From contig URRF01000002.1 in NCBI GenBank assembly GCA_900550145.1, positions 5,228 through 69,227 on the forward strand: 64,000 bases of DNA, in the 5' to 3' direction. Each line of letters begins with the position of its first letter. The stretch's first letter is position 1. Positions 8,786 to 41,940 of this stretch are shown one piece after another. Made by a program: the position numbers and the translations under genes. The notes beneath the pieces are model-generated. The model saw nothing but the letters and a program-made list of their open reading frames with translations. It made no database searches and was not told where the DNA came from. Source of the DNA: an uncultured Mollicutes bacterium (GTDB lineage Bacteria; Bacillota_I; Bacilli_A; RF39; UBA660).

Positions 8786-10396
8786 ATGAAGAAAATTAAG
8801 TTATTATTATTTCTTGTAACACTTTTTTCAGTAATAAATGTAAGTGCATTAACAAGTAAAGAAAGGTTGCAATCATATAAAGAAAAGTTATCTAATTATG
8901 AGTTTAATTTTAAATATGTTAATCAATCTGAAAATATTAAGTTAATTGAAGAAAAAAATAAAGGTACCATGTTAGGAGTTAAAGAAAACATACAAAGATA
9001 TTTCTTTAATGGTTTAATTAGAAGTGATATAGAAAGAATAATTAAATTAACTAATGAAGATGGAATAGATATTGATTGTTATCGTAAAGGTCAAACTTAT
9101 ACAATCTATGAAAATAATCAAACTCATACAGATACAGCAGACAAAGATTTTTGTAATGTAATAATATTTGATTTTAATGGAGAAAATACCGGTGAAATTA
9201 AAATAAATGGTTCTATAGAAGAAGTAAAAGGAGATGCTTTGGTACAAAAAAGAGCATCTAGCATAATTAAGAATTTAGTTGGAAATGTATATATTACAGA
9301 TATCGATATGGTTAACCACTACATAAATTACAAATCCAATTCATCAACATTCTTTGCAGGTAATAATGCAATAAAAGAATTTGCAAAATTAAAAAAAGCA
9401 AGTGAAGAAAACCCAGATTTAGATTTCTTTGTTGGTTATGAAGATACAAGAAGAGGAGATTATTTTATATCTTTTGCAGAAGGTGTAACATATATATCAA
9501 AAGATGGAATTATTTATGGATTTAGCGTTAATACTTACAATTGCGCAAACATGTTTTTCGTACCAGTTGGTACAAAAATTGAAGATTATAAAACAGTTTT
9601 AGAAAATAGAATTAAAAATTATATTAAAGATGAAAATATCACAATAAAGGTAAGTGATTTAGAAGAGTCATATAATGGAGATGTTTCAAATTATTTGCCA
9701 AATATGCTTGGAATAAAAGTAGAAGATTATTATAAAATGGTAAATACAACATTTGAAAAAGAATTAGAAAAAGCTAATGATAATGATAGAGTATATTTAG
9801 AACAAAATGGACAAGCAATAATGATGAAAGCTTATAAACTTACTATAAATGATACTGAATATGAAATTGGTATAGCAGAACTTGATGAAAAAATTAATGA
9901 ATTTGGAAAAATATTATCAATTGATAATAAAACAGGAATAATTATAAGAACTGGTTCTAGTAACGTTCCATTAGATGCATCTATTTTAGTGGATAAATAC
10001 GAATTAAATGAAAAAGAAATTGAATATTTAACTAATATTGGATACGAAAGTATAAATTCATATAATTTAAAATTATATTCAAAAATTTTAGATAAAGTAA
10101 TTAGTGAGTTTAATAATAAAAGTGAAATATTAATACCAATAGATAATATAGATACAACAGATTTAAAAGTAATATATTTAAGTGATGATGGAAAAACACA
10201 TGAAACATATGATATTAAAAAAGTAACTTACGAAGGTAAAAATTATATATCATTTAGTACAGGACATTTTAGTAATTATGTATTAGTACAATCTACTATT
10301 AAAAATCCAAATACTGGTGATAATATATATTACTTATTCATATTACTAACAATAAGTATATTAGGAACATTATATATAAAGAAAAAATGCAATTAA
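8786..10396 (+). CDS. cell-surface protein with signal peptide and C-terminal NPNTG sortase (SrtB-type) sorting signal
   Basis: N-terminal signal peptide. C-terminus is NPNTG, then a hydrophobic stretch, then KKKCN. Confidence 0.55.
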   Translation: MKKIKLLLFLVTLFSVINVSALTSKERLQSYKEKLSNYEFNFKYVNQSENIKLIEEKNKGTMLGVKENIQRYFFNGLIRSDIERIIKLTNEDGIDIDCYRKGQTYTIYENNQTHTDTADKDFCNVIIFDFNGENTGEIKINGSIEEVKGDALVQKRASSIIKNLVGNVYITDIDMVNHYINYKSNSSTFFAGNNAIKEFAKLKKASEENPDLDFFVGYEDTRRGDYFISFAEGVTYISKDGIIYGFSVNTYNCANMFFVPVGTKIEDYKTVLENRIKNYIKDENITIKVSDLEESYNGDVSNYLPNMLGIKVEDYYKMVNTTFEKELEKANDNDRVYLEQNGQAIMMKAYKLTINDTEYEIGIAELDEKINEFGKILSIDNKTGIIIRTGSSNVPLDASILVDKYELNEKEIEYLTNIGYESINSYNLKLYSKILDKVISEFNNKSEILIPIDNIDTTDLKVIYLSDDGKTHETYDIKKVTYEGKNYISFSTGHFSNYVLVQSTIKNPNTGDNIYYLFILLTISILGTLYIKKKCN

Positions 10397-14502: not shown

Positions 14503-15641
14503 AAAAGAAAACATCAATAGTAATAAGTATATTAACTTATCTAACAATAATACTTATATCTTGTTATTTTATAATCATACCAAATTCAAAAAAAATCAAT
14601 GAAACAAATAAAATAAAAGATCTAACTTATGATGATAAAATTAAACTAATAGACGAAATAAACGAAAAATATATTAAACAAGAAAACAACATTAATAATA
14701 AATACCAAGTAAAATTAGAGCAAATAGATGAAAAATATCAAAAATCTTACGAAGAACTTAATTCAAAATATAAAGAATTAGAAAACGATATTAATAAAAA
14801 AATTATTGACATTAATGTAGAATCTAACCAAGAATTCATGACTAATGGTTTAAGCAAAAAATATTATGAATTAAGAGACGAATGGTCTAGCTTACATAGT
14901 GAAAAATCAAACCTAACGTCATCAAAATATAAAGAAGAAAGCGAAATAAATAACAAAAAAAGAGAAGAAAAAAATACAATTACAAATAACAAAGAATCAG
15001 AAATAAAAAAATTAAACGATAAAAAAACAAATGAAATAAATAGAATTGATAATATAAATACTAATAAAAAACAAAAAATTAAAAAATGCATAATAAATAT
15101 AATTGTAGGAATTATAATAATTCTATTACCAATAATATATGTAATACTTAAATTTAATAAATTAACTAAATTATTAAATAATGTAAAAGAAAGTTGGAGT
15201 AGTGTTGATATATTACTAAAACAAAGAGCAGATTTAATTCCAAATATACTATCAGTAGTTAAAGGATATTCCAAGCACGAAAAAGATACACTAACTAAAA
15301 TTACAGAAGCAAGAAAAGAAGTGTTAAGTGCAGAAAATAAAAAAGATAGCATAAACGCTAACGAAAAATTAAGCAATGAAATTCCAAAAATACTATTATT
15401 AAAAGAAGAATATCCAGAATTAAAAGCAAACAAAAACTTTATGAAATTACAAAACAATTTAAGTGAAGTAGAAAACAATATTGCTATTTCAAGAAGTATA
15501 TATAACAAAAATGTACTTGATTACAAAAACAATATAGAAGTTTTCCCATCAAATATTATTGCAAGCATATTTAACTTTAAACCAGAACTATTTTTTGAAA
15601 TAGATAAAGAAGAAAGAGAGAACCCAACTATAAAACTTTAA
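14499..15641 (+). CDS. membrane-anchored long coiled-coil protein fused to a C-terminal LemA-family domain
   Basis: N-terminal TM helix, then a roughly 190-aa K/E/N-rich coiled coil, then a second TM helix. The C-terminus (LKQRADLIPNILSVVKGYSKHEKDTL...) is LemA-like. Confidence 0.6.
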   Translation: MKKKTSIVISILTYLTIILISCYFIIIPNSKKINETNKIKDLTYDDKIKLIDEINEKYIKQENNINNKYQVKLEQIDEKYQKSYEELNSKYKELENDINKKIIDINVESNQEFMTNGLSKKYYELRDEWSSLHSEKSNLTSSKYKEESEINNKKREEKNTITNNKESEIKKLNDKKTNEINRIDNINTNKKQKIKKCIINIIVGIIIILLPIIYVILKFNKLTKLLNNVKESWSSVDILLKQRADLIPNILSVVKGYSKHEKDTLTKITEARKEVLSAENKKDSINANEKLSNEIPKILLLKEEYPELKANKNFMKLQNNLSEVENNIAISRSIYNKNVLDYKNNIEVFPSNIIASIFNFKPELFFEIDKEERENPTIKL

Positions 15642-15711
15642 GATAAAAGTTATGCAAAATAAATGCATAATTTTTTATTGTGTAAAATAATTTAAAAATC
15701 AAAAAAAACGC

Positions 15712-15741
15712 TTGACAAACTGGGGGGGGGGGTAATATAAT
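15712..15741 (+). promoter_or_regulatory. promoter of the pilin-LRR gene with an 11-G homopolymer in the -35/-10 spacer
   Basis: TTGACA 15712-15717; G11 15722-15732; TATAAT 15736-15741 (18-nt spacer), or alternatively TAATAT 15733-15738 (15-nt spacer). Confidence 0.55.
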
Positions 15742-15777
15742 AGAGATATAATAAAAAAATAGAGGGAGAAATAAGAT

Positions 15778-16995
15778 ATGAAAAAAGGAAATGGCTTTAC
15801 ATTAATAGAATTATTAGCAGTAATAGCAATATTAGCAATAATACTAGTAATATCAATACCTAAGATATTAGATGTAATAGAAGAATCTAAAGTAAATACT
15901 TTAAAAAATACAATAAAGTTAATAGCAGATAGTGCAGAAAAGAAATATACAGAAAATGAGGCATTTGATGAAGAAGAGGATATTACTTGTGAATCTATTT
16001 CTAAATTAAGTAGTGATGATTACAAAAAATGTACAATTACATTTGATGAAGAGGGTAAAGCAAAAGTAAATATATTGTGTAAAAATAAATTTGAAGGATA
16101 TGAATGTACAGGTAATAGTGCAAATGTGACATGTAATATGGTAACAGATGAAAAATACTTTACATATGTTGAAGTAGAAGGTGGAATAGAAATAACAGAT
16201 TATAATGAAGAAGGTGGGAAAGATGTAGTGATACCAAGTATGATAGAAGGTAGTAATGTTATAAGTATAGGAACAAGGGCATTTTACAATAATCAATTAA
16301 CAAGTGTAATCATTCCAAATAGTGTTGTAAGTATAGGGAGTGATGCATTTTATTCTAATAAATTAACTAGTGTAATTATACCAAGTAGTGTTACAACCAT
16401 AGGTTGGGGTGCATTTAGAAATAATCAACTAACCAGTGTGATAATATCAGAAGGTGTTAAAGCCATAAGCGCTATTGCTTTTATGGATAATAAAATAACA
16501 AGTGTAATCATTCCAAATAGTGTTATAAAAATAGAAGGTGGTGCGTTTAATAATAATCAGTTATCAGATAATGATGCCTTCATATATAAAAGAAATAGTG
16601 ATGGAAGTATAGATAATACAACAATAGTTAGTTATGGAGGAAAGAATAAAAGTCCTATAATACCTAATACAGTTACAACTATAGGAGTAAATGCATTTTA
16701 TTCTAATAAATTAACTAGTGTAATTATACCAAGTAGTGTTACAAGTATAGAACAAAATGCATTTTATTCTAATAAATTAACAAGTGTGACTATACCAAGT
16801 AGTGTCACAAGTATAGGTAAAAATGCATTTTATAAATCAAGTTTTTCTAATTCAAACTTAACAAAAATAATAAATAAAACAGGTAAATCTTTTGATTGGG
16901 GGATTATAGTAAATGGTAGCTCTAGTACTGATTATACTTTTATAACAGGTACAGTAGTTAATAATACTGGTAATGTAGAAATAGTAAGTGAATAA
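15778..16995 (+). CDS. type IV prepilin-like N-terminus fused to BspA/TpLRR-type leucine-rich repeat domain (putative pilus-borne adhesin)
   Basis: N-terminus is MKKGNG|FTLIELLAVIAILAIIL (class III prepilin signal, G-1/F+1/E+5). The C-terminal half holds 23-aa repeats (NxFYSNKLTSVIIPSSVTSIG) with near-identical 69-bp DNA repeats. Confidence 0.7.
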   Translation: MKKGNGFTLIELLAVIAILAIILVISIPKILDVIEESKVNTLKNTIKLIADSAEKKYTENEAFDEEEDITCESISKLSSDDYKKCTITFDEEGKAKVNILCKNKFEGYECTGNSANVTCNMVTDEKYFTYVEVEGGIEITDYNEEGGKDVVIPSMIEGSNVISIGTRAFYNNQLTSVIIPNSVVSIGSDAFYSNKLTSVIIPSSVTTIGWGAFRNNQLTSVIISEGVKAISAIAFMDNKITSVIIPNSVIKIEGGAFNNNQLSDNDAFIYKRNSDGSIDNTTIVSYGGKNKSPIIPNTVTTIGVNAFYSNKLTSVIIPSSVTSIEQNAFYSNKLTSVTIPSSVTSIGKNAFYKSSFSNSNLTKIINKTGKSFDWGIIVNGSSSTDYTFITGTVVNNTGNVEIVSE

Positions 16996-17030
16996 CAAAA
17001 AAGAATTTTTTAACAAAAGATTCTTTTTTC
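16996..17030 (+). terminator. rho-independent terminator
   Basis: AAAAGAAT...ATTCTTTTTT hairpin. Confidence 0.5.
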
Positions 17031-17097
17031 TATATTTTGATTGACTTTAGAAAAACCATAATTATAATATAGGTACAAAATTATTTAGGGAGGTTTT

Positions 17098-17784
17098 ATG
17101 AAGAAGATATTATTTGGAATTATGCTATTATTTATAGCAATAGGGGTTAATGCAACTACAAATGTAGATGTAAAAAATGTAAATATTGAAAATGTTAAGG
17201 TAGAGGTAAATGAAAAAATTGGATATAATGAAGAGATAAATATAAAATATTCAATTAATCCAAGAGATGCATCAAATCTAAGCATCACATGGAGTGTAAC
17301 TGGATTAAAAAAGGGAGTTACAGTAGAATTTGTATCTGATAAAGTAACTAAAAACTCTGATGGTGAAATTAAATTAAAGGTAAATAATACTACTAATGAA
17401 GAAGTTACATTATCTTTAATAGGTGAACAAGATGGTAAAATAGTTAATCAAACTAAATTAAATGTTCAAAATAAAGAAAATACTTTAACTAGGGTAACTG
17501 AAGAAGTTAAAAATCTTATTTTAGAATTAGATGAAAAAATAAATAATAATAATTATGAAACTAATAAGGAATTAATTGAAAAAATTCAAGATTTATTAGA
17601 TAACAATCCAGAAATTAAGGATTCAATTGATGAAGAATTATTAACAAAATTTGAGGATGTAAAAACATCTGTAAATGATTTTGATATTGATAATAATAAA
17701 ACATTTGTAAAAATTGTATCTATTGTACTAGTTGTAGTATTCTCTGCATTAATATTTTGGATTTTTAAGAAAGAAGAAAAGTAA
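17098..17784 (+). CDS. secreted protein with Ig-like region and C-terminal membrane anchor (hypothetical)
   Basis: Signal peptide; SITWSVTG Big-like segment; C-terminal TM helix followed by KKEEK. Confidence 0.4.
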   Translation: MKKILFGIMLLFIAIGVNATTNVDVKNVNIENVKVEVNEKIGYNEEINIKYSINPRDASNLSITWSVTGLKKGVTVEFVSDKVTKNSDGEIKLKVNNTTNEEVTLSLIGEQDGKIVNQTKLNVQNKENTLTRVTEEVKNLILELDEKINNNNYETNKELIEKIQDLLDNNPEIKDSIDEELLTKFEDVKTSVNDFDIDNNKTFVKIVSIVLVVVFSALIFWIFKKEEK

Positions 17785-18389: not shown

Positions 18390-19040
18390 ATGTTAGTAGT
18401 ATTGTCGCCTATAAGAACAAAAGCAATTCATGAAGTTATTGATTCTAGATGCACTGATGAATTAAAAATATCATTAAGAGAAGAAGCATCTTTATTAACT
18501 TATAGATTAAGTAAAGTAGAAAAAAAAGGTAATGTTACTTATACTTTATATTTTTATAATATATCTGATAATTTGTATGTTCTTGATACTAAAACAAATA
18601 AAAAATATTATAAAAACGATAAAATAGAAAATATAAATCCAGGAACCATTTTAAATTTAGATATATATGCTATAGATAGCAGTTATTGTAAAACATATAA
18701 ACCAGATAGTAGAAGTATACGTGTACCTTATTATAATAAGTTTTCTACAAGCGAATTATGTATAGGTCATAAAGAATATGCTCTATGTAAAGAAGATATT
18801 AATGTTACATTAACAGAAGAACAATTTAAAGAATCGTTAAATAAATATATTGAGTCACTTGAACAAAAACGAACTACAATAACAACTAAGCAAACAACAA
18901 ATGAAGGTAATAAATTTAATATATTCGATTTTATAATAAAATATAACGAATATATTAGTGCATTTGGAGTTCTATTATTAATTATTTATATAGTAGTAGA
19001 TATTAAAATAACTAATAAAAAAAGGAGAAGTATATTATGA
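18390..19040 (+). CDS. hypothetical protein with C-terminal TM anchor
   Basis: ORF with a C-terminal hydrophobic helix followed by KKRRSIL. The stop overlaps the next start (ATGA). Confidence 0.3.
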   Translation: MLVVLSPIRTKAIHEVIDSRCTDELKISLREEASLLTYRLSKVEKKGNVTYTLYFYNISDNLYVLDTKTNKKYYKNDKIENINPGTILNLDIYAIDSSYCKTYKPDSRSIRVPYYNKFSTSELCIGHKEYALCKEDINVTLTEEQFKESLNKYIESLEQKRTTITTKQTTNEGNKFNIFDFIIKYNEYISAFGVLLLIIYIVVDIKITNKKRRSIL

Positions 19041-20299
19041 GAAAAAAGATATTAATTTTATTAAGTTTAATTTTACCAGCATTTGTATATGCAGATAGTT
19101 GTACAATCAATAATGATACACAAACTACGCAAGATAGAACTTTATCATGTGATACTAATTTTAAAAAGACAACTACTTTTAAAACGGAAAGTGAAGAAAA
19201 AATACTTGAAAATGAAGTATGTACAATAAAATGTACTGAAAGTATTATTTTTTCAATTGATCCAGTAAAAAAAGTATTAGCAGGTACAAGTTTTAGATAT
19301 CCTCTTTATTATAGTGGTGAGAGGAAATGTACAGCAACTTATAAATATCAAGAATATGAAACAAAAATTAAAAAATTAGTAGGTGAATATGAAAAACTCA
19401 CTGGAACAGATAAAGATACTAAAGCAAATGAAATAGTAAATTATTATACTTTAAAAAAGCAATGCGATGAGTTTACAAAACAAGATAGTGACTATAAAAA
19501 TGAATATAAACTAAATGCAAATGTAGAATTAAAGGTAGATACTTCTACTGGTTCTAAAACAATAAAATATGTATCATTAAAAATTAATGATTATGAATCA
19601 AATGTTAATGTTGATGAAGTAAATTATGCTTCATGTGGATATGATGAATCATTAAAAAAATGTGCTGGTTCTACAAAAACAATATCAAATTGGACTGAAA
19701 CAGCAAGAATATATGGAAAATATACCATGCCAAATACATATGTAGAAAGATATACAGGAGAAATAAAAAATGTTCCAAGTACTAAAACTTGTAATGCAGG
19801 TGATAGATACTTTGTTGATTTTAAAGAACTTACAAATCCACAAACTGGTGCGACTGATGAAACTGGGTATAGTTTAACACTTACGGCTGATGAAATAGGG
19901 AATAATATTGATAAGAGTAAAGATAAATGGAAATTATCAGTAAATTGTTCATACAAAGTAAAAAATTTAATATTTCCACAAGGCAGTTCTACTACAACAG
20001 TAGATGAAAACTATAAAAAATATGGAAGTTCAACATTTATTTATAGACAAATAGATATTGATGATCCATTTCCAAATAGAGAACCAGCTGCTAATTGGCA
20101 AGGAAAAGAAAATATAATAATATCTAAACCATATGAAACACTATTAACATTACAAAAATTTGAAATATCTTTGGATAGAGGATCTATAAAAAGAGTAAGA
20201 GATTATAATAGTAATTATCCATATGATACGTTTAATTTAAGCGAAATGGAAAAAAGTTTATTTATAATAAATAATCCGACAATTGTAAAGAGAAAGTAA
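19037..20299 (+). CDS. secreted Cys-containing protein (hypothetical)
   Basis: Signal peptide MRKKILILLSLILPAFVYA. Translationally coupled to the upstream ORF. Confidence 0.4.
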   Translation: MRKKILILLSLILPAFVYADSCTINNDTQTTQDRTLSCDTNFKKTTTFKTESEEKILENEVCTIKCTESIIFSIDPVKKVLAGTSFRYPLYYSGERKCTATYKYQEYETKIKKLVGEYEKLTGTDKDTKANEIVNYYTLKKQCDEFTKQDSDYKNEYKLNANVELKVDTSTGSKTIKYVSLKINDYESNVNVDEVNYASCGYDESLKKCAGSTKTISNWTETARIYGKYTMPNTYVERYTGEIKNVPSTKTCNAGDRYFVDFKELTNPQTGATDETGYSLTLTADEIGNNIDKSKDKWKLSVNCSYKVKNLIFPQGSSTTTVDENYKKYGSSTFIYRQIDIDDPFPNREPAANWQGKENIIISKPYETLLTLQKFEISLDRGSIKRVRDYNSNYPYDTFNLSEMEKSLFIINNPTIVKRK

Positions 20300-20401: not shown

Positions 20402-21226
20402 ATGGGCAATTTAGGTTTCAAAATTAAAAGATTTTTACAAAACAAAAATACAGTAACAATTATAGGAGTAGCACTTATTGTTGGTATAATATACTTTGGA
20501 TATAATTATAGAATAAAACAAGCTACTAATCCTACAAAGGTTCCGTACGCAAAAACAACAATACAACCAAGAACAAAAATAACGGAAGATATGATTGGAT
20601 ACATGGATGTTATGCCTAGTATGATTAACAAATCAACAATCACAAATATAAAATATATAGTAGGTAAATGGTCTAATTATAATACAATAATACCAGAGGG
20701 AAGTTTGTTTTACACACAAACAGTTGTTACATCTGATCAATTACCAGATTCAGCATTTATTACAATACCAGAGGGCTATACACCATTTAACTTATCTGTA
20801 AACGTTAATAGTACTTATGGTAATTCAATATTTCCAAATAACTATATAGATGTATATTTTAAATATTTAAACTCTGATGGCAAGGTAACTGTAGGTAAAC
20901 TAATTGAAAATGTTAAAGTACTTGCTGTAAAAGATAGAAATGGAAAACATGTTTTTGAAAATAGTGATGAAGAAAGAGTTCCAAGCATCATAATATTTGC
21001 TGTGCCTGAAGATATGCATTTATTATTGAGAAAAGCAACATATCTATCAAATATAAGAGAAATTTCTGCAGAATTAATACCAGTACCTACAACTGAGTCA
21101 TATAGTTCTGAACCAGGCGCTATTAGATTGGCTAGTACAGCACTTAAAAACTTCATAGAATTAAATACAGGTACAGTTCCAGTAGATGAATTGCCACCAA
21201 TTTATGATCCTACTGAAGAGCAGTAG
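20402..21226 (+). CDS. CpaB/RcpC-like Flp pilus assembly protein (TM plus SAF-like domain)
   Basis: N-terminal TM helix; the VDVYF...VKVLAVKD...IIIFAVPEDMHLLLRKA pattern is typical of CpaB. Confidence 0.5.
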   Translation: MGNLGFKIKRFLQNKNTVTIIGVALIVGIIYFGYNYRIKQATNPTKVPYAKTTIQPRTKITEDMIGYMDVMPSMINKSTITNIKYIVGKWSNYNTIIPEGSLFYTQTVVTSDQLPDSAFITIPEGYTPFNLSVNVNSTYGNSIFPNNYIDVYFKYLNSDGKVTVGKLIENVKVLAVKDRNGKHVFENSDEERVPSIIIFAVPEDMHLLLRKATYLSNIREISAELIPVPTTESYSSEPGAIRLASTALKNFIELNTGTVPVDELPPIYDPTEEQ

Positions 21227-21243
21227 AAAAAAGGGAGGGCTTT

Positions 21244-22362
21244 ATGGATACGATGTTTACTAATGTTGATTTTGGCCCATTAAAAAAATATTTAGATGAT
21301 GACGATATTACTGACGTATCATATAGTAATAATGGGCAGTTATGGCTTAAATCACTTTCAAAGGGAATTTATAAGCCGGAATTGCAAGACGTTAATAATG
21401 CTATAATTGAAAAGCTTGCTTTTCAGTGCGCAAATATGATGGGTAAAACTTTCAATATGGCACACCCCTTTTTGGATGCAGAAAGTGCAGAACTTCGTCT
21501 TAACTTTGTACATGATTCAATAGCAAAAAATGGTATTGCACTTTTAATGAGAAAAACACCCGCAAAGATCAGATTAAAAAAAGAAAAAATAATAGAAGAA
21601 AAATATATAACAGAAACCATACATGACTTTCTACTTAAATGTGTTGAAGGTCATTGCAATATAATTATAAGTGGTGAAACAGGTAGTGGTAAAACAGAGT
21701 TTTTAAAATATCTAGCCGCACATACTAAAGAAAATGAAAAACTTATAACTATAGAGGATACTCTAGAACTACATTTAGATAGAATATTCCCATATAGAGA
21801 TATAGTAGCAATGAAAACTAATAATATTGCATCTTATTCAGATGTATTAGTTACATGCATGAGACAAAATCCAAAATGGATATTACTATCAGAAGTACGT
21901 AGTGCAGAAGCGGTAATGGCTGTGCGTAATTCCATTTCATCAGGACACTATATAATATCTACAATACATGCTGATAAAGCCGCTTCAATACCAAATCGTA
22001 TGTATAGTTTGCTTGAAACTAACCTTGATATTGATCAATTCTTAAAATCAGTTTATAGATATGTTCAAATAGGCGTTCATATAAGAGGATACCAAGATAA
22101 AAATACACAACGATTTATTCGTGAAGTTTGTGAAGTTTGCGAATTTTATGTTGATGATGAGAATAACGCAAAAAGTAATATAATTTATAAAAAAACACCA
22201 ACTGGACAAGTTTATTATGCAAATCCAACTAGATATCTATTGGATTATTTATCAGCACAGGGTGTAATCCTTCCTAAAGATGTTATAGTAAAGCAAGAGG
22301 AAGATGTTACAAGTACACCAACTGTGAAATCAAAATTAAGTGAAGAAATACTAGAGATATAA
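21244..22362 (+). CDS. TadA/CpaF-type secretion ATPase (type II/IV secretion NTPase family)
   Basis: Walker A IISGETGSGKTEFLK; VirB11/CpaF-like core; 372 aa. Confidence 0.8.
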   Translation: MDTMFTNVDFGPLKKYLDDDDITDVSYSNNGQLWLKSLSKGIYKPELQDVNNAIIEKLAFQCANMMGKTFNMAHPFLDAESAELRLNFVHDSIAKNGIALLMRKTPAKIRLKKEKIIEEKYITETIHDFLLKCVEGHCNIIISGETGSGKTEFLKYLAAHTKENEKLITIEDTLELHLDRIFPYRDIVAMKTNNIASYSDVLVTCMRQNPKWILLSEVRSAEAVMAVRNSISSGHYIISTIHADKAASIPNRMYSLLETNLDIDQFLKSVYRYVQIGVHIRGYQDKNTQRFIREVCEVCEFYVDDENNAKSNIIYKKTPTGQVYYANPTRYLLDYLSAQGVILPKDVIVKQEEDVTSTPTVKSKLSEEILEI

Positions 22363-22377
22363 TAAAGGAGGTATACT

Positions 22378-23271
22378 ATGGAATTTTTACTAATACTCAT
22401 TATTGCTCTATTTATAGTAATTTATAGAAAAAATACAGGTGCTATTACATATAAGTTTATAGTTGGAAAAGTAGGAGAAGCATATGATAAATTTGCACCC
22501 TACTCATTTAAAAAAATAAGAGAGAAAGTAAAAGAACTCGGCATGGAATATACCCCAAAACAATATACAGTGCAAGTAATAATGTTTGCAGGTGCTGCGT
22601 TTATAGTTTCATATTTATATTTTTACAGCATAATAATAAGTATTTTTTATGTAGTAGTAGCAGTATTAGTTATTCCATATTTAGCTTACTTAAGATGTAA
22701 AAGAGTATATAGCGAATTTATTTTTGAACAAATCCAAGTATATACAACAAATACAATAATGGAATTTGCTGTAACTGAATCATTTGTAAAATCATTAGAA
22801 GGTGTCTATTCATCTGGAGTATTAGAAGATCCCGTTTTAAGTGATGTAAAACATATGATAGATATGTCCTATGTAAATGGGTCAGTAAAAGAATCAATAG
22901 AATATATGGATAAAAAATATGACTATCATATAGTAAAAAATATGCATCAATTATTTTATCAAATTACACAAGAGGGCTCATTAGATGCTAAAGATACACT
23001 AGATGCAATGCTTGTAGATATAGATGCACTAGTAGAAGGTGTTTATAGAGATAGAATTGATAGATCTGCATTTCATAAATCATTTTTAAGATATGGAATC
23101 CTATTATACTTGATGGTAATGTTAATTCAGTATCTGCTTGGAATGGATTCGTATTTAAAATTATTAGATCAAACAGTAGTTAGAATATTATTACATGCAA
23201 TTATTATAATTAATAGTTATTTCTTACTAAATGGTGAAAAATATTATAATGAGAATGTAGGTGCTGAATAA
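22378..23271 (+). CDS. TadB-like inner-membrane platform protein (T2SSF-like)
   Basis: Polytopic membrane protein directly downstream of the ATPase; topology typical of this family. Confidence 0.45.
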   Translation: MEFLLILIIALFIVIYRKNTGAITYKFIVGKVGEAYDKFAPYSFKKIREKVKELGMEYTPKQYTVQVIMFAGAAFIVSYLYFYSIIISIFYVVVAVLVIPYLAYLRCKRVYSEFIFEQIQVYTTNTIMEFAVTESFVKSLEGVYSSGVLEDPVLSDVKHMIDMSYVNGSVKESIEYMDKKYDYHIVKNMHQLFYQITQEGSLDAKDTLDAMLVDIDALVEGVYRDRIDRSAFHKSFLRYGILLYLMVMLIQYLLGMDSYLKLLDQTVVRILLHAIIIINSYFLLNGEKYYNENVGAE

Positions 23272-24050
23272 TGGAGATATTAGTAGTTGGTATAATTATT
23301 CTTTATATATTAGAGAAGAATAAAAAAATAAATAGTGGACAATTTATACAAGAAAATACTGCATTTTTAGACAAATTAAAAGAATCAGATTATGATTTTC
23401 TAGTTAGAAGTAAGTATGGAGAAGATGTAGATCCTAACGTTCTTTTTCAAAAAAGAACAAAGAATGCATTTATAGTAATAGTATTTCTTATATTCTTATT
23501 TATTACTCAATTATCTTTTTTAAATGTATTAGCTGCATTTGTAGTTGGATTTGTTGTTTTCAAATCATCATACAGTAGTTTAAAAACCTATTACAAAAAA
23601 CATTTACATGAGATAAATTTACAATTACCATATTTTCTTAAAACACTAGAAGTATTAGCACAGCATTATACAATACCAGTAGCATTAGCAAAAAGTATTG
23701 ATAGTGCACCAGAAATATTTAGATCTGGTTTAAGAAATTTAGTAGAAAGAATAAATGAAGGAGATTCAACTGTTGAACCATATATGGATTTCGCTAAAGA
23801 ATATCCAGTAAATGATTCAATGAGAATGATGAGATTATTATATAGATTAGGTCTTGGTTCCCAGGAAAATAAACATGAACAACTTGTAATGTTCTCAAAA
23901 AGTGTATCAGCACTTCAAAATAAAGCAAGAGAAACAAGATATAAAGAAAGATTACAAGTAATGGAAAACAAGACAATGATAATGCTGGGTGCAGTTGGTG
24001 GAGGAGTAATGTTATTACTTTTAATATCAATGTTACAATCATTTTCGTAA
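23271..24050 (+). CDS. TadC-like inner-membrane platform protein (T2SSF-like); N-terminal region contains an IS-derived 64-nt segment
   Basis: TM helices flank a cytoplasmic domain. Nucleotides 23312-23375 are 63/64 identical to the IS3 orfA segment at 49030-49092 (reverse complement). Confidence 0.45.
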   Translation: MEILVVGIIILYILEKNKKINSGQFIQENTAFLDKLKESDYDFLVRSKYGEDVDPNVLFQKRTKNAFIVIVFLIFLFITQLSFLNVLAAFVVGFVVFKSSYSSLKTYYKKHLHEINLQLPYFLKTLEVLAQHYTIPVALAKSIDSAPEIFRSGLRNLVERINEGDSTVEPYMDFAKEYPVNDSMRMMRLLYRLGLGSQENKHEQLVMFSKSVSALQNKARETRYKERLQVMENKTMIMLGAVGGGVMLLLLISMLQSFS

Positions 24051-24125
24051 AAAAGTGTAAACAATAATTGCTTTGTGTATAAATATGATATATAATATAA
24101 AAAATAAAAGTAAAGGAGGTAAAAT

Positions 24126-24314
24126 ATGAAAGCTGCTACAGGTGAGTTAAACTTAACCCTTATCACAATATTAGCATTAGGAGCTGTACTTGCATTCTTC
24201 TGGGCTTTATGGCCTTCAATTAAAGACAAAATAAGAGGCAGTATAAATGATAATGATGGTAATGATCCTAATGCTACAGGTTATGTAGAAATAGTAGAAA
24301 CAGATTTAATATAA
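24126..24314 (+). CDS. small hydrophobic pilin-like protein (possible divergent Flp-type pilin)
   Basis: 62 aa: MKAATG-ELNLTLITILALGAVLAFF, a hydrophobic helix after Gly. Sits at the pilin position in the tad operon. The motif is atypical. Confidence 0.3.
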   Translation: MKAATGELNLTLITILALGAVLAFFWALWPSIKDKIRGSINDNDGNDPNATGYVEIVETDLI

Positions 24315-24329
24315 TAAAGAGGTGATAGA

Positions 24330-24731
24330 ATGAGAGAAGCAGTTGGTGGAGCTCTATTGATAAAATTAGTAATGTTTTTCATAGTAATTTACGTATGCTT
24401 TATGGCAATTGCAGTTAATTATTCTATTACTTTTAGAGTAAAAAATCAGATTATAAATCTGATAGAAGCATATGAAGGTTATGATCTTGCTGAAGAGCAT
24501 ATAAAAGAATATGTTGCTAGTGTTGGTTATTATAAAGCAAATGGCAACATGATGGTTGAAGAAGATTGTATAAACGCTGCAAGCGTAGGTGGTTATTGCA
24601 TTGAAGAATTGACATCAACAAGAGGGACATATTATAAAGTTACTACGTATGTTTCTTTTGACTTTCCTATAGTTGGAAGATTAACTAATTTTCCAGTATC
24701 CGGGGAAACAAAAGTTATTTATAGCATGTAA
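24330..24731 (+). CDS. TadE-like pseudopilin-type protein
   Basis: 133 aa with a single N-terminal TM helix, in the position typical for tadE/tadF. Confidence 0.35.
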   Translation: MREAVGGALLIKLVMFFIVIYVCFMAIAVNYSITFRVKNQIINLIEAYEGYDLAEEHIKEYVASVGYYKANGNMMVEEDCINAASVGGYCIEELTSTRGTYYKVTTYVSFDFPIVGRLTNFPVSGETKVIYSM

Positions 24732-24743
24732 GGTGGTGTATTT

Positions 24744-25736
24744 ATGAATGTAATCGTGTCTAACAAGGCAAACAATCTTTTGTCTTCTCTTCAAATAGAT
24801 GTAATTAAAAAGATTCAAGGAGAGTTTTCAGTAGAAGAAATTATTTCTATATTTGAAAACTTTTTTTACCAAAGAATGATATTGGATATTACTGCAATCA
24901 GAGATTATAAAGATGTAAAAAATATACAAAATTTATCTATACATTTAGATACGAGTAAAATAATTATTCTACTTGATGGTTCAGCAGAAACCTCTTCTAG
25001 TGAATATATTTCAAAACTCATATCCATGGGTATATATAATTTTACACAAAATATAGATGGTGTTATATATTTACTTAATCATCCTAATTCATACAAAGAT
25101 GTTGCATCAATGCACCAAATAGAAGATAAACCATTTTCTATGATGAGAGTAGAAAATAACAGAACAAAAGTTATTGGCTTTAAAAATCTAACTGAAAATG
25201 CAGGAAGTTCATCATTAATTTTTATGCTTAAAAGGCAATTGCAAAATAATTATGTAGTTAAAGCAATTGAAATTGATTCACGAGATTTTTTGTTTTATAG
25301 CGACAAAGATATGATATCAACAACTAGTGAAGACTTAGGAAAAGAATTATTAAAATTAAATGGAAATGTAGATATTGTTTTAATTGATTTAAATAAATCT
25401 GATCAAGAAAAAGCATGCAATGAAGTTCTATATTTAATTGAACCATCAATTATAAAAATGAATAAATTCGTATCAAGGAATAGAGAAAAATTACCAACTC
25501 TTTTAAGTAAAAAGGTCATTTTAAATAAAAGCTTATTATCTGAAAAAGATATTAGAGAATTTGAGATGGAGTCAGGAATTAAAATATTTTATTCCATTCC
25601 TCCTTTAAATGACAGATATCCAAGTGAAATACTTGATAATTTCTTAGTAAAATTGGGCTTTCTTAAACAAAGAGTAGAACCAAGAGAAATGTCTAATAAT
25701 AACAAATTATTTGGTATATTTAAACGTAGAAGTTGA
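24744..25736 (+). CDS. hypothetical protein (possibly a degenerate TadZ/CpaE-like assembly protein)
   Basis: 330 aa with no intact P-loop. Called from position in the operon only. Confidence 0.2.
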   Translation: MNVIVSNKANNLLSSLQIDVIKKIQGEFSVEEIISIFENFFYQRMILDITAIRDYKDVKNIQNLSIHLDTSKIIILLDGSAETSSSEYISKLISMGIYNFTQNIDGVIYLLNHPNSYKDVASMHQIEDKPFSMMRVENNRTKVIGFKNLTENAGSSSLIFMLKRQLQNNYVVKAIEIDSRDFLFYSDKDMISTTSEDLGKELLKLNGNVDIVLIDLNKSDQEKACNEVLYLIEPSIIKMNKFVSRNREKLPTLLSKKVILNKSLLSEKDIREFEMESGIKIFYSIPPLNDRYPSEILDNFLVKLGFLKQRVEPREMSNNNKLFGIFKRRS

Positions 25737-25787
25737 CAATTATAAACATATATTATAAAATTAAATTGTTATAAAGGAGGAAGAACT

Positions 25788-26102
25788 ATGAGTTTATGTG
25801 AGAATTCAGAACTACTTAGTATAATTGGAATTTTAAAAACTGTACTAAAAATTATGCAAATTGGTATACCAGTTCTATTAATAATATTTGGAACTATTGA
25901 TTTAGGTAAAGCAGTTATGGCTGGAGAAGAAAAAGAAATCAAAGCGGCTACAAGTATTTTAGTTAAAAGAGCAATTGCAGCAGTAGCAGTGTTCCTATTA
26001 GTTTTATTAGTTTCAGTTATTACTGGCTGGGTAGGCGGAGATGAATGGAAACAATGCTGGAGCGCAGCAAACACTAATGTTAAAATAAATCCTTTGGGAT
26101 AA
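25788..26102 (+). CDS. small membrane protein (hypothetical)
   Basis: Two hydrophobic helices; 104 aa. Confidence 0.3.
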   Translation: MSLCENSELLSIIGILKTVLKIMQIGIPVLLIIFGTIDLGKAVMAGEEKEIKAATSILVKRAIAAVAVFLLVLLVSVITGWVGGDEWKQCWSAANTNVKINPLG

Positions 26103-26131
26103 TTTAAATCAAAGTTAATAATTGTAAATTT

Positions 26132-26160
26132 AAAAATATCTTTTTATAGATATTTTTTTC
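26132..26160 (+). terminator. rho-independent terminator
   Basis: AAAAATATC-loop-GATATTTTT plus T-run. Confidence 0.6.
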
Positions 26161-26195
26161 TTATCGTGATATAATGTAGAAGAGTAGGTGAACTT

Positions 26196-26849
26196 ATGAA
26201 AAAAGTTTTGATACTTTTACTCTTTATCCTTACCCTATGTGGATGTGAATACAAGAGTAAATATAATGAAATGGATATAAACAAATTATTTGATACATTT
26301 TTAGCCAATAATACTAATTTAGCCAATCACTCAACTAATGGCTACAAATATTATTTACCTAGAGGTGTAAAAGTAGTAAAAAGTAAAGAATACAATGAAG
26401 AACTATATTCAAATGGAAATTATTATTATTTATATATTGATGCGGTTGGTTACTTCTATAAAAATAATATAGATTATGAATTAGATGATTCACTATATTT
26501 CTCTAAAAGCTTTGATTATAATAACAAAACAGGATATGCAAATATAAAAAAGGAAAATGATAAATATTTAATATATGTTTATTATAACTATGCCAGCATA
26601 GAAACATATGCAAGCGAGGAAAACTTAAAAAATTCAATTGTAAATATTTGTTACATACTTAATTCAATTAAGTTTAACGATTCAATTACAAACTATGCAA
26701 TAGGTGATGATAGAGGAAAACTTAAAGAAGAAACATTTGATTTCTATGTTCCAAAAAAAGAAGGAAATTTTATAGATTACATAAATAAGTACGATGAATA
26801 TGTAGATGAAAAAAATACCGAAGGAAATATCGGTAAACAAGTTGAATAA
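26196..26849 (+). CDS. lipoprotein (hypothetical)
   Basis: Lipobox LTLCGC after a signal peptide. Confidence 0.55.
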   Translation: MKKVLILLLFILTLCGCEYKSKYNEMDINKLFDTFLANNTNLANHSTNGYKYYLPRGVKVVKSKEYNEELYSNGNYYYLYIDAVGYFYKNNIDYELDDSLYFSKSFDYNNKTGYANIKKENDKYLIYVYYNYASIETYASEENLKNSIVNICYILNSIKFNDSITNYAIGDDRGKLKEETFDFYVPKKEGNFIDYINKYDEYVDEKNTEGNIGKQVE

Positions 26850-26864
26850 GAAAGGTGGATTATT

Positions 26865-27575
26865 ATGGGACTTTTTGATAAGTTAAAAAATATTTTTATA
26901 GAGGAAGAAGAAATTGAATCAGAGGAATCATATAAAAGTATTCCAAAGAAAATAGAAGTAAAAGAAGAAACAAAAAAGGAAGAAGTTGTAAAAGAAATTC
27001 CGCAAATAACAAAAGAAGATGTAGTTAGTGATAGAGATTTAATTGAAACTAATCAAAAATTTAAATTTCCTATTATATTTGAAGAAGATGATTTCAAAGA
27101 AGAAAGAAAAAAGAGTAAAAGTATAAATGTGTTAGAAAGAGAAAATACTAAATATGAACCAGAGATAAAAAGAGAAGTAAAACCGCAAAAGAAAACATTT
27201 AAACCTTCCCCAGTTATTTCTCCAGTATATGGAGTATTGGATAAAAATTATACGAAGGATGAAATCAGTTCTAAAGATGGACTTCTTACAGATAGTGAAG
27301 ATAAGGTTGATATAGATTATGTTATAAAAAAAGCATATGGTAATCAAGCTACAACAAGAGAAGAAAAAAATAAAGAAAATCAAAAAGAATCAGATGAAAT
27401 AATAGATTTATTCAAAGATAAATTAAAAGAAGATGATTTTAATAATGAAGAATTATCTAATCAAGTAGACGAAAAAATAAAGTCAATAGATGACTTACTA
27501 AAAGATACAAACGATGATTTTTATTCTTTAGTTGATAGTATGTATAAAGATGAAGAAGGAGATGAAAAAGAATGA
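26865..27575 (+). CDS. acidic K/E-rich protein with N-terminal amphipathic helix (hypothetical)
   Basis: MGLFDKLKNIF followed by low-complexity charged sequence. Confidence 0.3.
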   Translation: MGLFDKLKNIFIEEEEIESEESYKSIPKKIEVKEETKKEEVVKEIPQITKEDVVSDRDLIETNQKFKFPIIFEEDDFKEERKKSKSINVLERENTKYEPEIKREVKPQKKTFKPSPVISPVYGVLDKNYTKDEISSKDGLLTDSEDKVDIDYVIKKAYGNQATTREEKNKENQKESDEIIDLFKDKLKEDDFNNEELSNQVDEKIKSIDDLLKDTNDDFYSLVDSMYKDEEGDEKE

Positions 27576-28287: not shown

Positions 28288-28629
28288 ATGACAACTATTA
28301 GTGAAATAAATGCTGCCATTCAAAGAGCAAATAACGAAATAGAAAAGTGTAATTCATTAAAAACAGCAATATCTGAGTTGTCGGAAAACATTATTTGTTG
28401 TACAAGCAAGTTAGAAGAAGCTTCTGATTTGATAAGCGATGGTTTAATAATTAATGGCAAATCAGCAGACGATGGATCAATATCTGAAATTTCAAATAAT
28501 ATAAAGAATGCTAAAGCAAATATAGAGGAAATTAATCCATCTATTGATACAAGAATACAAGAATTGCAAAAAAATATTGCTACTTGGAAAAATGAAATAA
28601 CACAATTACAAAAAACTACAAATGTATAA
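28288..28629 (+). CDS. small coiled-coil protein (hypothetical)
   Basis: 113 aa helical protein. Stop overlaps the start of the large hydrolase gene. Confidence 0.3.
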   Translation: MTTISEINAAIQRANNEIEKCNSLKTAISELSENIICCTSKLEEASDLISDGLIINGKSADDGSISEISNNIKNAKANIEEINPSIDTRIQELQKNIATWKNEITQLQKTTNV

Positions 28630-30946
28630 GAATGTAGCGGGTGATAGTATGAATAACAAATTTATATATAATGAGATTGCCATAAATGATTTAAAAAATT
28701 GTATTAATATTGCAATATCTTATGCAAACGAAATAAAAGAAAACATATCTTCTATAAATAATTTATTATCTTATATTAATATAAATAATAATATCTCAAG
28801 CTATTTAAATAATCTTAATAATGAATTAGATAGAATTTATAATATTCCAAAAGTAATAAACGAATGGGAATTTATTATATTAATTTCAAATGGTGATTTC
28901 AAATCAAAACTAAAAAGTTGGATACTAAATGGAGAAGTGACATGTGAAGATTTAGTAAATATGTCAGATTCCTATATGAAGGTCTTAGTAGCTATTAATG
29001 GTAACGACTACTATACGCAACTAAAAGAAATACAAAATCCATATGAAGCTTTAAAAGAAGCAGGAATGAATGAAGAATATTTAAATAAACTAAATGAGGC
29101 ATTCATAGAAAAACTAGTAGATGAAGATTTAATGTATACTGGTAAAGGTGTTGCTTATATGGCATATTCCTTTACTGGTCTTTTAGCAATGTTTGGTTTA
29201 GCACTTGATTATAATTTGGGTGGAAATTATGATAGCAAAGGAAAACATGGATTCTATCTAGGAAATAGTAAAGATAGCAATATGCTTGGAACATTAGACT
29301 GTAATAACTATTACGATTGGTTATGTAGATGTGTAGGAATTACTGGAGATAATAGTGGATATAGAGCAGTAGAAAAATATAAAAGAGGTGTAGATGGAAT
29401 AACACAAGAAGATAGAATTCAAGTAAATAGCAGTTCGCCAAATTATAAAACTGGTAATTCTGGAGACATAATGAACAATGAAAGACACATGATAGTTATT
29501 CTTGAAAATACAGGTAAAGGATACTGGATTTCAGAAGAATCTGCTTGTGCAAGAATACAATATCTTACATATGAAGAATGTGCTAAAAAAGGGTACTTAC
29601 TTAATGATATGAGTGCATTATATAGAAATACAAGTAAATCCCAAAGCAGAGCACAATATCAAGATAATAACTATATACCACCAGAAGTATACAAAAATTA
29701 TTTTGGAAATTTAAAAGAAGAAACAATGACTAAATTAATTGCACAATATAACAAGAGAAATTTAGCCAATTTTGATAAACAAACTATAATTAATATATTA
29801 AATAATGGTTACGATGATGGTTCAAATAGAATTACAAATATTTCAACACTACCTAATACAAACTATAATTATGATTTAAGATATGCACTTGATAACATTG
29901 ACAATATTGACTTTGATTCAGCGTGGGATAATAGTATCATGATAAATGTAATAGATGAAAAAACAAAAAATGCAATTGGCTCTTATCCTATAGATGAATA
30001 TGTAGCAGGAGTAATATTAGGTGAATCAGTAGCTAGAATGTATTATGAAGGATATTACGAAGGAAAAAACAATAATGGACAAGTTGCTACTGATGAAGAA
30101 ATGCTTGCATCAATGATGGCATTCGCAGTTTTAGCAAGATCATATGGAATTGCACAAACAGTTGAATCTCCTAGACACGCACAAGATCATAAAATAGAAG
30201 CTGGTTCTTCTAAACAATGGTTTAACGCTTCCCGTTTAAAAGGAAATGGAGAAAGAACTGCAGATGCAGAAACTGTACAAAAATGGGCAAAACTAGCCAA
30301 ATTAGCAGCATATCTAACATCAGGAAAAGTATTATCTTTAGATGGAGATAAAGTTACAAATGCAGGATATGGTTCAGGCAAACAGCATGAACTTATACAA
30401 TATGCAATAAATAATCACGAAACAGATTACACTAAAATACTAGAAAATTGTTATTCAAATGAAGATTATAAATGGGTAAAAGCAGGTACTGAAGTATATA
30501 ATTATAATTATTCTACTGAATCTATAAATAATAAATATAACAGTGTTGAAAGAATAGATGTAAAAGAACCACAAAACAACAATAATAATGAAACAATAAA
30601 AACAGGAAATACAAATAAAAATACCGAAACTACAAAAGAAATACCAAAAAAAGAAGACATAATAATAGAAGTACCAAAACCAAATCCAATAAATGTGTTA
30701 CCAGAAAATCTATTTAGTGATATAGTACCACCTCTAAAAGAAGGAAAACTAGGATATATGGAAATAAGTAATAAACACGTAATGTATGAATTAACAAATA
30801 TAAAAGAAACAGCATACAACAGTTACATATCATTACTTGAACAAAATGGCTTTACATTTAATGGAGAAGCATTTGTAAAAGAAAATTATATAGTTAACTT
30901 AAAATATGATAATAATACACTTTCATTAACAATAAATATAGTTTGA
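28622..30946 (+). CDS. multidomain cell-wall hydrolase-like protein: papain-like (NlpC/P60 or CHAP-type) Cys/His segment plus SpoIID/LytB-like domain; no signal peptide
   Basis: LDCNNYYDWLC ... GDIMNNERHMIVILENTGKGYWISE resembles a C40-type catalytic Cys/His pair. EYVAGVILGESVARMYYEGYY...MMAFAVLARSYG matches the SpoIID/LytB signature. No N-terminal hydrophobic signal. Confidence 0.45.
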   Translation: MYKNVAGDSMNNKFIYNEIAINDLKNCINIAISYANEIKENISSINNLLSYININNNISSYLNNLNNELDRIYNIPKVINEWEFIILISNGDFKSKLKSWILNGEVTCEDLVNMSDSYMKVLVAINGNDYYTQLKEIQNPYEALKEAGMNEEYLNKLNEAFIEKLVDEDLMYTGKGVAYMAYSFTGLLAMFGLALDYNLGGNYDSKGKHGFYLGNSKDSNMLGTLDCNNYYDWLCRCVGITGDNSGYRAVEKYKRGVDGITQEDRIQVNSSSPNYKTGNSGDIMNNERHMIVILENTGKGYWISEESACARIQYLTYEECAKKGYLLNDMSALYRNTSKSQSRAQYQDNNYIPPEVYKNYFGNLKEETMTKLIAQYNKRNLANFDKQTIINILNNGYDDGSNRITNISTLPNTNYNYDLRYALDNIDNIDFDSAWDNSIMINVIDEKTKNAIGSYPIDEYVAGVILGESVARMYYEGYYEGKNNNGQVATDEEMLASMMAFAVLARSYGIAQTVESPRHAQDHKIEAGSSKQWFNASRLKGNGERTADAETVQKWAKLAKLAAYLTSGKVLSLDGDKVTNAGYGSGKQHELIQYAINNHETDYTKILENCYSNEDYKWVKAGTEVYNYNYSTESINNKYNSVERIDVKEPQNNNNNETIKTGNTNKNTETTKEIPKKEDIIIEVPKPNPINVLPENLFSDIVPPLKEGKLGYMEISNKHVMYELTNIKETAYNSYISLLEQNGFTFNGEAFVKENYIVNLKYDNNTLSLTINIV

Positions 30947-41154: not shown

Positions 41155-41940
41155 AATAAATGCCAAGAAATATTAAACAAAAGAAGAAATGAAATGTCAG
41201 AGAAAGAACATCATTCTAAACATTATTGCTATAGATATACATTTAGTTCTAAAATTGAATGCGGTATATGTGGCTCAAATTATGTCCATAGAATAAGCTG
41301 TAATCAAAAAGGAAAGAAATATTTCTATTGGTCTTGTTATAATAAAGTTACTTTAAAGGAAAAATGTCCCAAATCATTAACAATTAGAGAAGATATATTA
41401 AAAGAAATGTTTATTGAAGTTTATAACTCAATTACAACTCAAAAGCATAAAACGAGAGATAGACTAATAAAAGCAATAAAAGAAACTATAACTAGCGAAG
41501 ATAATAAGAAGGAATTGAGTAAACTTTATAGTGAAGTACAAACTTTACAAAAAAGACTATCTAATTTAATTGATTTAAAACTTTATAGAATAGAAAACAA
41601 AGATGTCTATAATGAAAAAGAAAAAGAAATTTCAAATAAAATAAAAATGCTAAATGAACAAATTGAACTGTTAGAATATAAAGATAAACAGAATAAAGAT
41701 ATATCTAAAAGACTTAAAGACATTGAGAAAATCATAAATAAAGAAGAACAACCAATGGAAATGTTTGATGATGTTAAATTTGAAAATTTAGTAGAAAAAA
41801 TAATTATAGGCGAACAAGATAGAGATGGTTATATTAATTCTAATACTATAAGATTTGTTCTAAAAATTGGTACAGAGTATAAATTTAAAGATTTGTCATT
41901 TGTGCCAAACAAGAAATATAGGTGCAGTAGAGAGTTCTAA
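41155..41940 (+). pseudogene. C-terminal fragment of a large serine recombinase (zinc-ribbon + coiled-coil), abutting the tyrS fragment
   Basis: CGICGSNYVHRISCNQKGKKYFYWSC zinc ribbon followed by a coiled coil. The N-terminal resolvase and recombinase domains are absent. The frame is open from 41155, immediately after the tyrS-fragment stop. Confidence 0.55.

Follow-up and report, generated by a model that had tools for sequence, protein, structure and literature searches.

We analyzed a gene for a modular type IV prepilin with a leucine-rich repeat (LRR) region, together with its promoter, in a 64,000-nucleotide stretch of DNA from an uncultured Mollicutes bacterium (contig URRF01000002.1; the whole 64-kb stretch is hereafter called the window). 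The coding sequence occupies positions 15778..16995, stop included, starts with ATG and encodes 405 amino acids (aa), as judged from profile hidden Markov model (HMM) matches and homologues; this and the other features of the gene and its promoter lie on the forward (+) strand. It opens with the leader peptide MKKGNG (15778..15795), a class III signal with predicted PilD cleavage after G6 (HMMs and alignment to PDB sequences), and continues with a pilin module (residues 7–125; 15796..16152) for which alignment-based AlphaFold2 (AF2) modeling and comparison with stand-alone pilins indicate an alpha1 helix and a four-stranded beta-sheet with five cysteines. The remainder is a BspA/TpLRR-type LRR solenoid (residues 126–405; 16153..16992) of two cassettes, in each of which a cap hairpin precedes 22-aa units, and a C-terminal cap. 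All elements that an initial annotation had placed in this region were present, with one numerical correction: the repeats, given there as 69 bp or 23 aa, have an actual period of 66 bp or 22 residues, both in Tandem Repeats Finder (TRF) analysis of the two arrays and in the 66-nucleotide (nt) spacing returned by a repeat search.

The N-terminus, MKKGNG followed by FTLIELLAVIAIL, matched Pfam N_methyl (29.1 bits, cut-off 21.2) and TIGR02532 (27.7 bits, cut-off 16.3), and in MKKGNG/FTLIELLAVIAILAIILVISIP, where the slash marks the putative PilD site, a glutamate falls at mature position 5 (E11 of the precursor), as in other class III signals. Residues 1–135 matched only type IV pilins among PDB sequences (Geobacter PilA, MshA, Myxococcus PilA, Streptococcus sanguinis PilE1 and PpdD), and the mature chains of these pilins align from query residue 7 onward, consistent with cleavage at G6/F7. 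All homologues in the alignment retain E5 and the conserved alpha1N. Stand-alone pilins of 132–135 aa from other metagenomes have the same module at 45–46% identity and terminate at '...VTCS', equivalent to query residues ~117–120; because they stop where the LRR begins, residues 1 to ~125 constitute a complete pilin and the LRR a C-terminal graft. The pilin module is joined to other C-terminal sequences too (P0147, P0152). With N_methyl and LRR_5 in one chain, the protein is a modular pilin as defined by Raynaud et al. 2021 (IPR012902 plus a domain that is not pilus-specific). A Flp/Tad (type IVc) pilin was ruled out, as the sequence after G6 is FTLIELL (E5, L6) and not G/xxxxEY; such pilins have ~50–80 aa instead of 405, and the matches were to N_methyl/GspG/ComGC and to no Flp or TadE family.

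LRR_5 (BspA type) matched the C-terminal two thirds of the protein in two stretches (142.8 bits, cut-off 27.7), so that both domains of the proposed fusion score above their HMM thresholds, and the score above the gathering threshold, the solenoid and the units of ~22 residues together identify BspA-type LRRs. At the DNA level, the first 66-bp array spans 16257..16563 (4.7 copies) and the second 16672..16833 (2.5 copies, 88% matches). An exact-repeat search returned a 54-nt sequence in two copies, at 16343..16396 and 16691..16744, and unit identity was 89% between the units starting at 16690 and 16756 and 87% between those starting at 16342 and 16690, in agreement with the near-identity of the repeat units noted initially.

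AF2 with a 67-sequence alignment gave a predicted local distance difference test score (pLDDT) of 91.8 and a predicted template modeling score of 0.78, superseding a poor single-sequence model (pLDDT 60.5). The model joins the pilin module to the LRR solenoid, as the fusion would require, with an alpha1 helix over residues 9–62 (54 residues), strands at 82–89, 95–101, 108–112 and 117–121, and a continuous solenoid from 128 to 405. The pLDDT was ~80–87 across the predicted pilin part, in which the long alpha1 and antiparallel sheet of a pilin are both predicted, and high across the pilin-LRR junction. The best structural matches were BspA-type LRR proteins, namely 4h09 (EUBVEN_01088, match score 20.5), 4cp6 (PcpA, a pneumococcal adhesin, 19.1) and 6mlx (TpLRR, 19.1); these fold searches were dominated by the LRR part, and the pilin head got no separate match.

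A promoter scan upstream of the gene identified a −35 hexamer TTGACA (15712..15717), kept in same-locus contigs, and a −10 hexamer TATAAT (15736..15741), which at a distance of 18 nt form the only 12/12 match to the sigma-70 consensus in 15500–17300. The spacer reads aact, G11, taa, and its G11 homopolymer (15722..15732; homopolymer search), a candidate slipped-strand switch, lies between the −35 and −10 hexamers as in promoters of the porA and tp0126 type. This tract is the sole run of at least 7 G or C in 64 kb of ~25% G+C DNA, and four overlapping G8 matches were observed in the window against 0.02 expected from shuffles. A ribosome-binding site, GAGGGAG (15762..15768), can be read 9 nt 5' of the ATG. 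Directly 3' of the stop, RNA folding gave a 15-bp AT-rich hairpin with a U-rich 3' side (16997..17029; −9.8 kcal/mol, z = −4.6, 0/200 shuffles as good), which is likely an intrinsic terminator; a strict scan for GC-stem terminators returned none. The downstream gene has its own promoter (TTGACT-16-TATAAT at 17041), and together the pilin promoter, the hairpin and this separate promoter mark the pilin gene as monocistronic.

Natural variation in repeat number and promoter tract

The identical 405-aa protein was encoded on 21 contigs that were read, a contig of ~1.2 Mb is among those that carry it, its 90% cluster had 163 members, and more than 100 of the 120 best homologues have both Pfam domains (N_methyl and LRR_5). 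Alleles at 83–97% identity were 361, 383, 405 and 426/427 aa long, and their alignment showed exact 22-aa indels at two sites, one per LRR array, in an otherwise near-identical background, such that repeat number varies among strains in whole units, as the initial annotation had supposed. TRF and the allele alignment placed one- and two-unit deletions of the first array in alleles P0008 and P0011, and these together with cluster lengths placed one extra unit of the second array in the 427-aa alleles and the loss of one in the 383-aa alleles P0009 and P0010. Several of the length classes were seen again in independent samples, and a more distant cluster had the same pattern (399/421/443/487 aa). 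Assembly collapse is unlikely to account for the series, because a typical read is longer than a 66-bp unit and the alleles occur repeatedly. Searches of the 64-kb window with tblastn and blastn found no silent LRR or pilin cassettes.

At one locus of a related genome, a 486-aa pilin-LRR gene is followed by a 316-aa gene with LRR_5 only and no N_methyl match (L097:1862–4413), and the same locus in another strain has one 309-aa pilin-LRR gene (L098:3097–4026). Tandem LRR genes appear here to have recombined or to have been reduced by deletion, and the open reading frame (ORF) with LRR_5 only could serve as a donor cassette. The N-terminus is mosaic among alleles, with MKKGNGFTLIE...ISIPKILDVIEESKVNT in some and MKKKNAFTLIE...IAIPRILDVIETSKKDS in others.

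The promoter tract came in a pure Gn form, with G10 (L014, L101), G11 (the window, L108, L109) or G12 (L008, L009, L102), and in a GnTGG form, with n = 8 (L104, L105), 9 (L001), 10 (L110), 11 (L103, L106) or 12 (L107); a promoter pattern scan of metagenome contigs added one extra locus only, with G10, most of the data for this organism being in ENA assemblies. For the pure-G allele the spacer is n + 7, that is 17 nt with G10, 18 nt with G11 and 19 nt with G12. Tract length ranged from G8 to G12 among contigs encoding the identical 427-aa protein P0123 (L102–L111) and from G10 to G12 among contigs with the window's protein or close alleles. Since L102–L111 code for one identical protein, the tract changes faster than the coding sequence. 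Tract polymorphism among near-identical strains, the mark of a phase-variable promoter, is present here in assembled consensus sequences, not reads, and tract length differs among assemblies as the variable poly-G promoter proposed initially would have it. A diverged allele (L003) has G9 within another promoter.

At least seven contigs end or have an N-gap exactly at the tract (L004–L007, L011, L110, L111), which is a recurrent assembly breakpoint for this organism; such breaks and gaps are only suggestive of switching within a clone. L010 and L013 also end at the G tract. The end of L013 is a 44-nt poly-C sequencing artefact, and that of L010 looks like a sequencing-adapter remnant.

Poly-G tracts and modular pilins in related gut genomes

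Related loci were surveyed in a set of 84 (1.28 Mb, 27.6% G+C) from GTDB representative genomes, fetched via pilin alignment. These relatives are uncultured gut metagenome-assembled genomes (MAGs) labelled Bacilli, Tenericutes, Mycoplasmatota or Clostridium sp. CAG; among the matches listed in a scan of genome contigs, the best had 53% identity and the window's own species was absent. Within the set, 12 of the 14 tracts of G≥8 had a prepilin motif on their own strand no more than 200 nt downstream (binomial P = 7 × 10−23 for a target zone of ~1% of positions, a value inflated by paralogy). A tract was present for ~10% of the prepilin ORFs in the surveyed loci (12/123). The poly-G pilin loci have at least five unrelated promoter types, and all nine poly-G-preceded genes that were tested scored above threshold for N_methyl and encode 306–677 aa. 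In related gut MAGs, large modular pilin genes are preceded by tracts of G8–G13 that are flanked by −35-like and −10-like boxes.

The poly-G pilins differ in their heads. These comprise LRR_5 in two tandem copies in L020 (7179–9267 and 9364 onward, G13), a DUF285-type LRR (L096:148), DUF6273 (L091:3572), a phage Gp10_C-like domain (L033) and coiled-coil stalks with unrelated tips (L033–L037), and one poly-G pilin has no recognised C-terminal domain (L060:6346). A single MAG, MGYG-HGUT-02248, carries at least six poly-G pilin genes (L033, L034, L036, L037, L038, L067). The pilin gene of the window seems to exemplify a broader tendency of uncultured low-GC gut Bacillota to place large modular pilins behind poly-G promoters.

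Genomic context and filament machinery

The window is ordinary chromosome, with leuS, tyrS, argS, mur ligases, ezrA, rnj, infC and rplT among its genes, and flanking sporulation genes indicate a spore-forming member of Bacillota. A Tad-like (type IVc) cluster (20402–27575) starts 3.4 kb downstream of the pilin gene. It includes an RcpC/CpaB-like gene (20402), a CpaF-type T2SSE ATPase (21244), two membrane proteins (22378, 23271) and candidate pilins of 62 aa and 133 aa (24126, 24330), together with a 330-aa ORF that has no Pfam match and may be TadZ-like. The cluster is syntenic with the LRR pilin gene in the species group, and the upstream side varies between contigs. This break in synteny falls just upstream of the pilin gene, as seen when window positions 15600–15711 are set against L002:9800–10000, L003:2780–3000 and L102:1–400, and the varying upstream neighbours are a LemA-family gene, an extracytoplasmic function sigma factor, an HTH_38 gene and a 182-aa ORF without assigned function, with a BclA_C/collagen-like gene ~3 kb further upstream of the last. 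On the other side, the gene at 17098–17784, always directly downstream of the LRR pilin in the species group, encodes a protein of 228 aa without a Pfam match, which begins with a signal-like segment and ends in a hydrophobic anchor.

No Peptidase_A24 gene was found in the 64-kb window. The initial annotation had proposed to look for a pilD gene elsewhere in the genome, and in related genomes PilD is encoded next to a PilC-like protein (L022:774–3863, L023:5506–8474, L100:147–3172). The PilC-like protein of these pairs is unusually long (730–770 aa), its two T2SSF domains being preceded by a long extension at the N-terminus. In L022 and L100 the pair adjoins serS and an LRR pilin lies within a few kb, and in L023 the N_methyl gene near the pair has no LRR_5 match. 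We found no PilB-type ATPase near any pilin locus examined or beside the PilC-PilD pairs. A stand-alone homologous pilin whose context was checked is an orphan too.

Several other features of the window were recorded. Mobile-element remnants lie at 41194–41940 and 47911–48711 (−), comprising an ORF with a recombinase zinc-ribbon domain only and an rve-family integrase on the minus strand. Two paralogous hybrid histidine kinases of near-equal length (HisKA + HATPase_c + receiver) are encoded at 51202–53403 and 54495–56750 with an acyltransferase gene between them, and the ORFs at 8786–10396, 19037–20299 and 28622–30946 (536, 420 and 774 aa) had no Pfam match at E ≤ 0.001–0.01.

Proposed function and rival explanations

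We interpret the gene as encoding a modular type IV pilin with an LRR binding head, in which a mutable promoter tract tunes expression and gain and loss of repeat units change the length, and we give this interpretation a probability of roughly 0.6. Pilus display, adhesion and on/off switching of transcription are the parts that we infer. A PilD-type prepilin peptidase would cut after G6, and the hydrophobic alpha1 would then allow the protein to be built into a pilus by a type IV filament machinery. Because the LRR pilin is bulky, it would probably be present at low abundance or at the tip, in the manner proposed for S. sanguinis PilB. The LRR face, judging from its family, may bind a host or microbial ligand. 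Slipped-strand changes in the G tract would set expression stochastically by moving the TTGACA/TATAAT spacing among 17, 18 and 19 nt, an effect on transcription expected from promoters of the porA and tp0126 type. Recombination between near-identical 66-bp units would add or remove LRRs in frame and alter the binding surface; here the allele series is observed and the mechanism is the presumed part.

Several observations weigh against this interpretation. PilD, PilB and PilC were not found in the 64-kb window in a Pfam search of essentially all ORFs of at least 120 aa, and the sole filament machinery there is the Tad-like cluster, whose pilins normally carry another signal. The LRR pilin and its stand-alone relatives lie outside pilus operons, as orphans among housekeeping genes. 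As to the promoter, a close relative (L002) is without any G tract, most LRR pilins of other genomes also have none (for example L097–L100 and L022), and the spacer of the GnTGG allele to TATAAT would be 18–22 nt, mostly non-permissive; an alternative TGG-TAATAT extended −10, read from the sequence, would also give this allele a spacer of n + 7. Homopolymer lengths in short-read metagenomes are error-prone, such that differences of one G may be artefacts, and contig breaks at poly-G can stem from sequencing chemistry.

The orphan position of the gene, without adjacent pilus genes and with relatives placed likewise, is what would be expected if the class III signal served export and anchoring only, the product, cleaved by PilD or not, being a surface LRR protein held by alpha1, or a short pseudopilus-like stub and not an extended pilus, perhaps by analogy with archaeal sugar-binding proteins that have class III signals. 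A rigid graft of 280 residues may fit poorly in a filament body, and the many paralogues per genome are more like surface-protein families than pilus subunits. Yet the N-terminal 125 residues are a complete pilin head common to stand-alone pilins, E5 and alpha1N are kept throughout the homologues, and bulky modular pilins do enter S. sanguinis pili (PMC8179133), so we consider anchoring alone unlikely. A functional reading of the downstream synteny, with the LRR pilin as a subunit of the Tad-like (type IVc) system 3.4 kb away, would draw on the gene order pilin / 228-aa / SpoU / 216-aa / 420-aa / RcpC-like / T2SSE ATPase, which is kept in all species-group contigs that reach that far, and on the lack of a second filament ATPase in the window. 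It is distinctly improbable given the classical G/FTLIE (N_methyl) signal in place of the Flp G/xxxxEY, the small candidate pilins that the cluster has of its own, the unrelated tRNA/rRNA methylase gene that lies between, the homologous LRR pilins of other genomes, which have no nearby Tad genes, and the PilC/PilD pairs of relatives.

If the differences in G-tract length were sequencing or assembly noise, the promoter would be effectively constitutive and the tract neutral or a structural spacer. Short-read assemblers do mis-call long homopolymers and two-colour chemistry does make poly-G artefacts, to which the contig ends of L013 and L010 may attest, but the range of 8–12 exceeds ±1 and equal lengths were found in independent samples (L104 = L105, L103 = L106, L008 = L009). 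In different lineages and promoters the tract also keeps its place, and in genomes of ~27% G+C it shows strong enrichment upstream of pilin genes; unless mutability of the tract is selected for, this position and enrichment are difficult to account for, which makes a noise origin very improbable. To an ORF that is an assembly chimera of a pilin gene and an LRR surface-protein gene, which the initial annotation had named as a finding that would overturn it, we attach negligible weight, as the unusual domain pair is the only point in its favor and is answered by the exact protein on 21 contigs, the cluster of 163, the more than 100 two-domain homologues and a junction modeled at high confidence.

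The architecture is not new in itself. The survey by Raynaud et al. 2021 lists IPR012902-IPR026906, which is N_methyl plus BspA-type LRR (InterPro name checked), as the seventh commonest modular-pilin architecture, with 18 proteins, and a further 6 proteins with two IPR026906 (LRR_5) hits, their function being listed as unclear (PMC8179133, Dataset S1). The initial description of the gene as chimeric, and of such LRRs as normally belonging to large sortase- or autotransporter-anchored adhesins rather than pilins, is unsupported or overstated, as the combination had already been catalogued. Its companion statement, that no characterised pilin of this architecture was known, appears to stand: searches of the open-access literature turned up no experimental work on an LRR pilin, which is weak evidence of absence, and in the same literature no direct precedent for phase-variable pilin promoters in Firmicutes, RF39 or TANB77.

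Among pilins that have been studied, the closest in design are S. sanguinis PilB (pilin + vWA) and PilC (pilin + lectin), which likewise combine a small pilin module and a class III signal with a bulky C-terminal ligand-binding module in a monoderm host (PMC8179133). The protein described here differs from them in its LRR solenoid head, its orphan gene outside a pil locus, its promoter homopolymer and its variable repeat number. BspA, TpLRR and PcpA proteins have lipid, choline-binding or cell-wall/Por-type anchors, whereas here the pilin module provides the anchor. The cluster of the gut order TANB77 (PMC11680825) is also Tad-like, with a CpaF-type ATPase and small pilin-like genes, and also comes from an uncultured low-GC human-gut Bacillota, but its pilin-like proteins have 143–236 aa, are encoded inside the cluster and lack an LRR module, unlike the LRR pilin.

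Control of transcription by a poly-G spacer is established for Neisseria meningitidis porA and for tp0126 and tpr genes of Treponema pallidum (review PMC7864442). As in these promoters, the −35 and −10 hexamers of a surface-protein gene are separated by a spacer with a G run, and changes in run length shift the spacing to either side of the 17-nt optimum; the host here is instead an uncultured low-GC gut Bacillota and the target a type IV pilin gene, and the effect on transcription is assumed by analogy. Homopolymer spacer switches also occur in Bordetella fim2/fim3 (poly-C) and in Mycoplasma hyorhinis vlp (poly-A). In Neisseria, PilC/PilY1 phase variation depends on poly-G in the coding region, and pilE/pilS antigenic variation on gene conversion from silent copies. 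The locus resembles these in that an adhesin or subunit of a type IV pilus varies stochastically, but where Neisseria uses frameshift or gene conversion, the locus has its tract in the promoter and varies in repeat number, and the window holds no silent cassette.

Modular pilins, this architecture and the promoter-spacer homopolymer switch are thus of already known kinds. What appears to be new is their joint occurrence in type IV pilin genes from uncultured gut Bacillota, along with the series of natural alleles and an association of poly-G tracts with modular pilins across the family. Modular pilins are the current explanation for many of the binding functions of simple type IV filaments, and only the vWA and lectin types have been studied; the locus adds a well-supported LRR-headed pilin from an abundant uncultured human-gut lineage. 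Its natural alleles in repeat number and tract length make the variability directly testable in existing metagenomes. More tentatively, and with somewhat less than even confidence, we suggest that uncultured low-GC gut Bacillota keep a genome-wide repertoire of orphan modular pilins with interchangeable heads (BspA LRR, DUF285 LRR, DUF6273, phage Gp10_C/tail-fibre-like and coiled-coil stalks), a subset of them, not most, behind their own poly-G switch, such that one machinery could display a stochastically changing set of adhesins. If so, the repertoire would parallel Mycoplasma Vlp or Neisseria Opa in a system built on pilins, with gain and loss of LRR units as a second layer of variation. 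The family-wide association, if true, would account for a recurrent class of MAG assembly breaks and would point to a so far undescribed way for hard-to-culture gut commensals to change how they adhere and which surface antigens they show.

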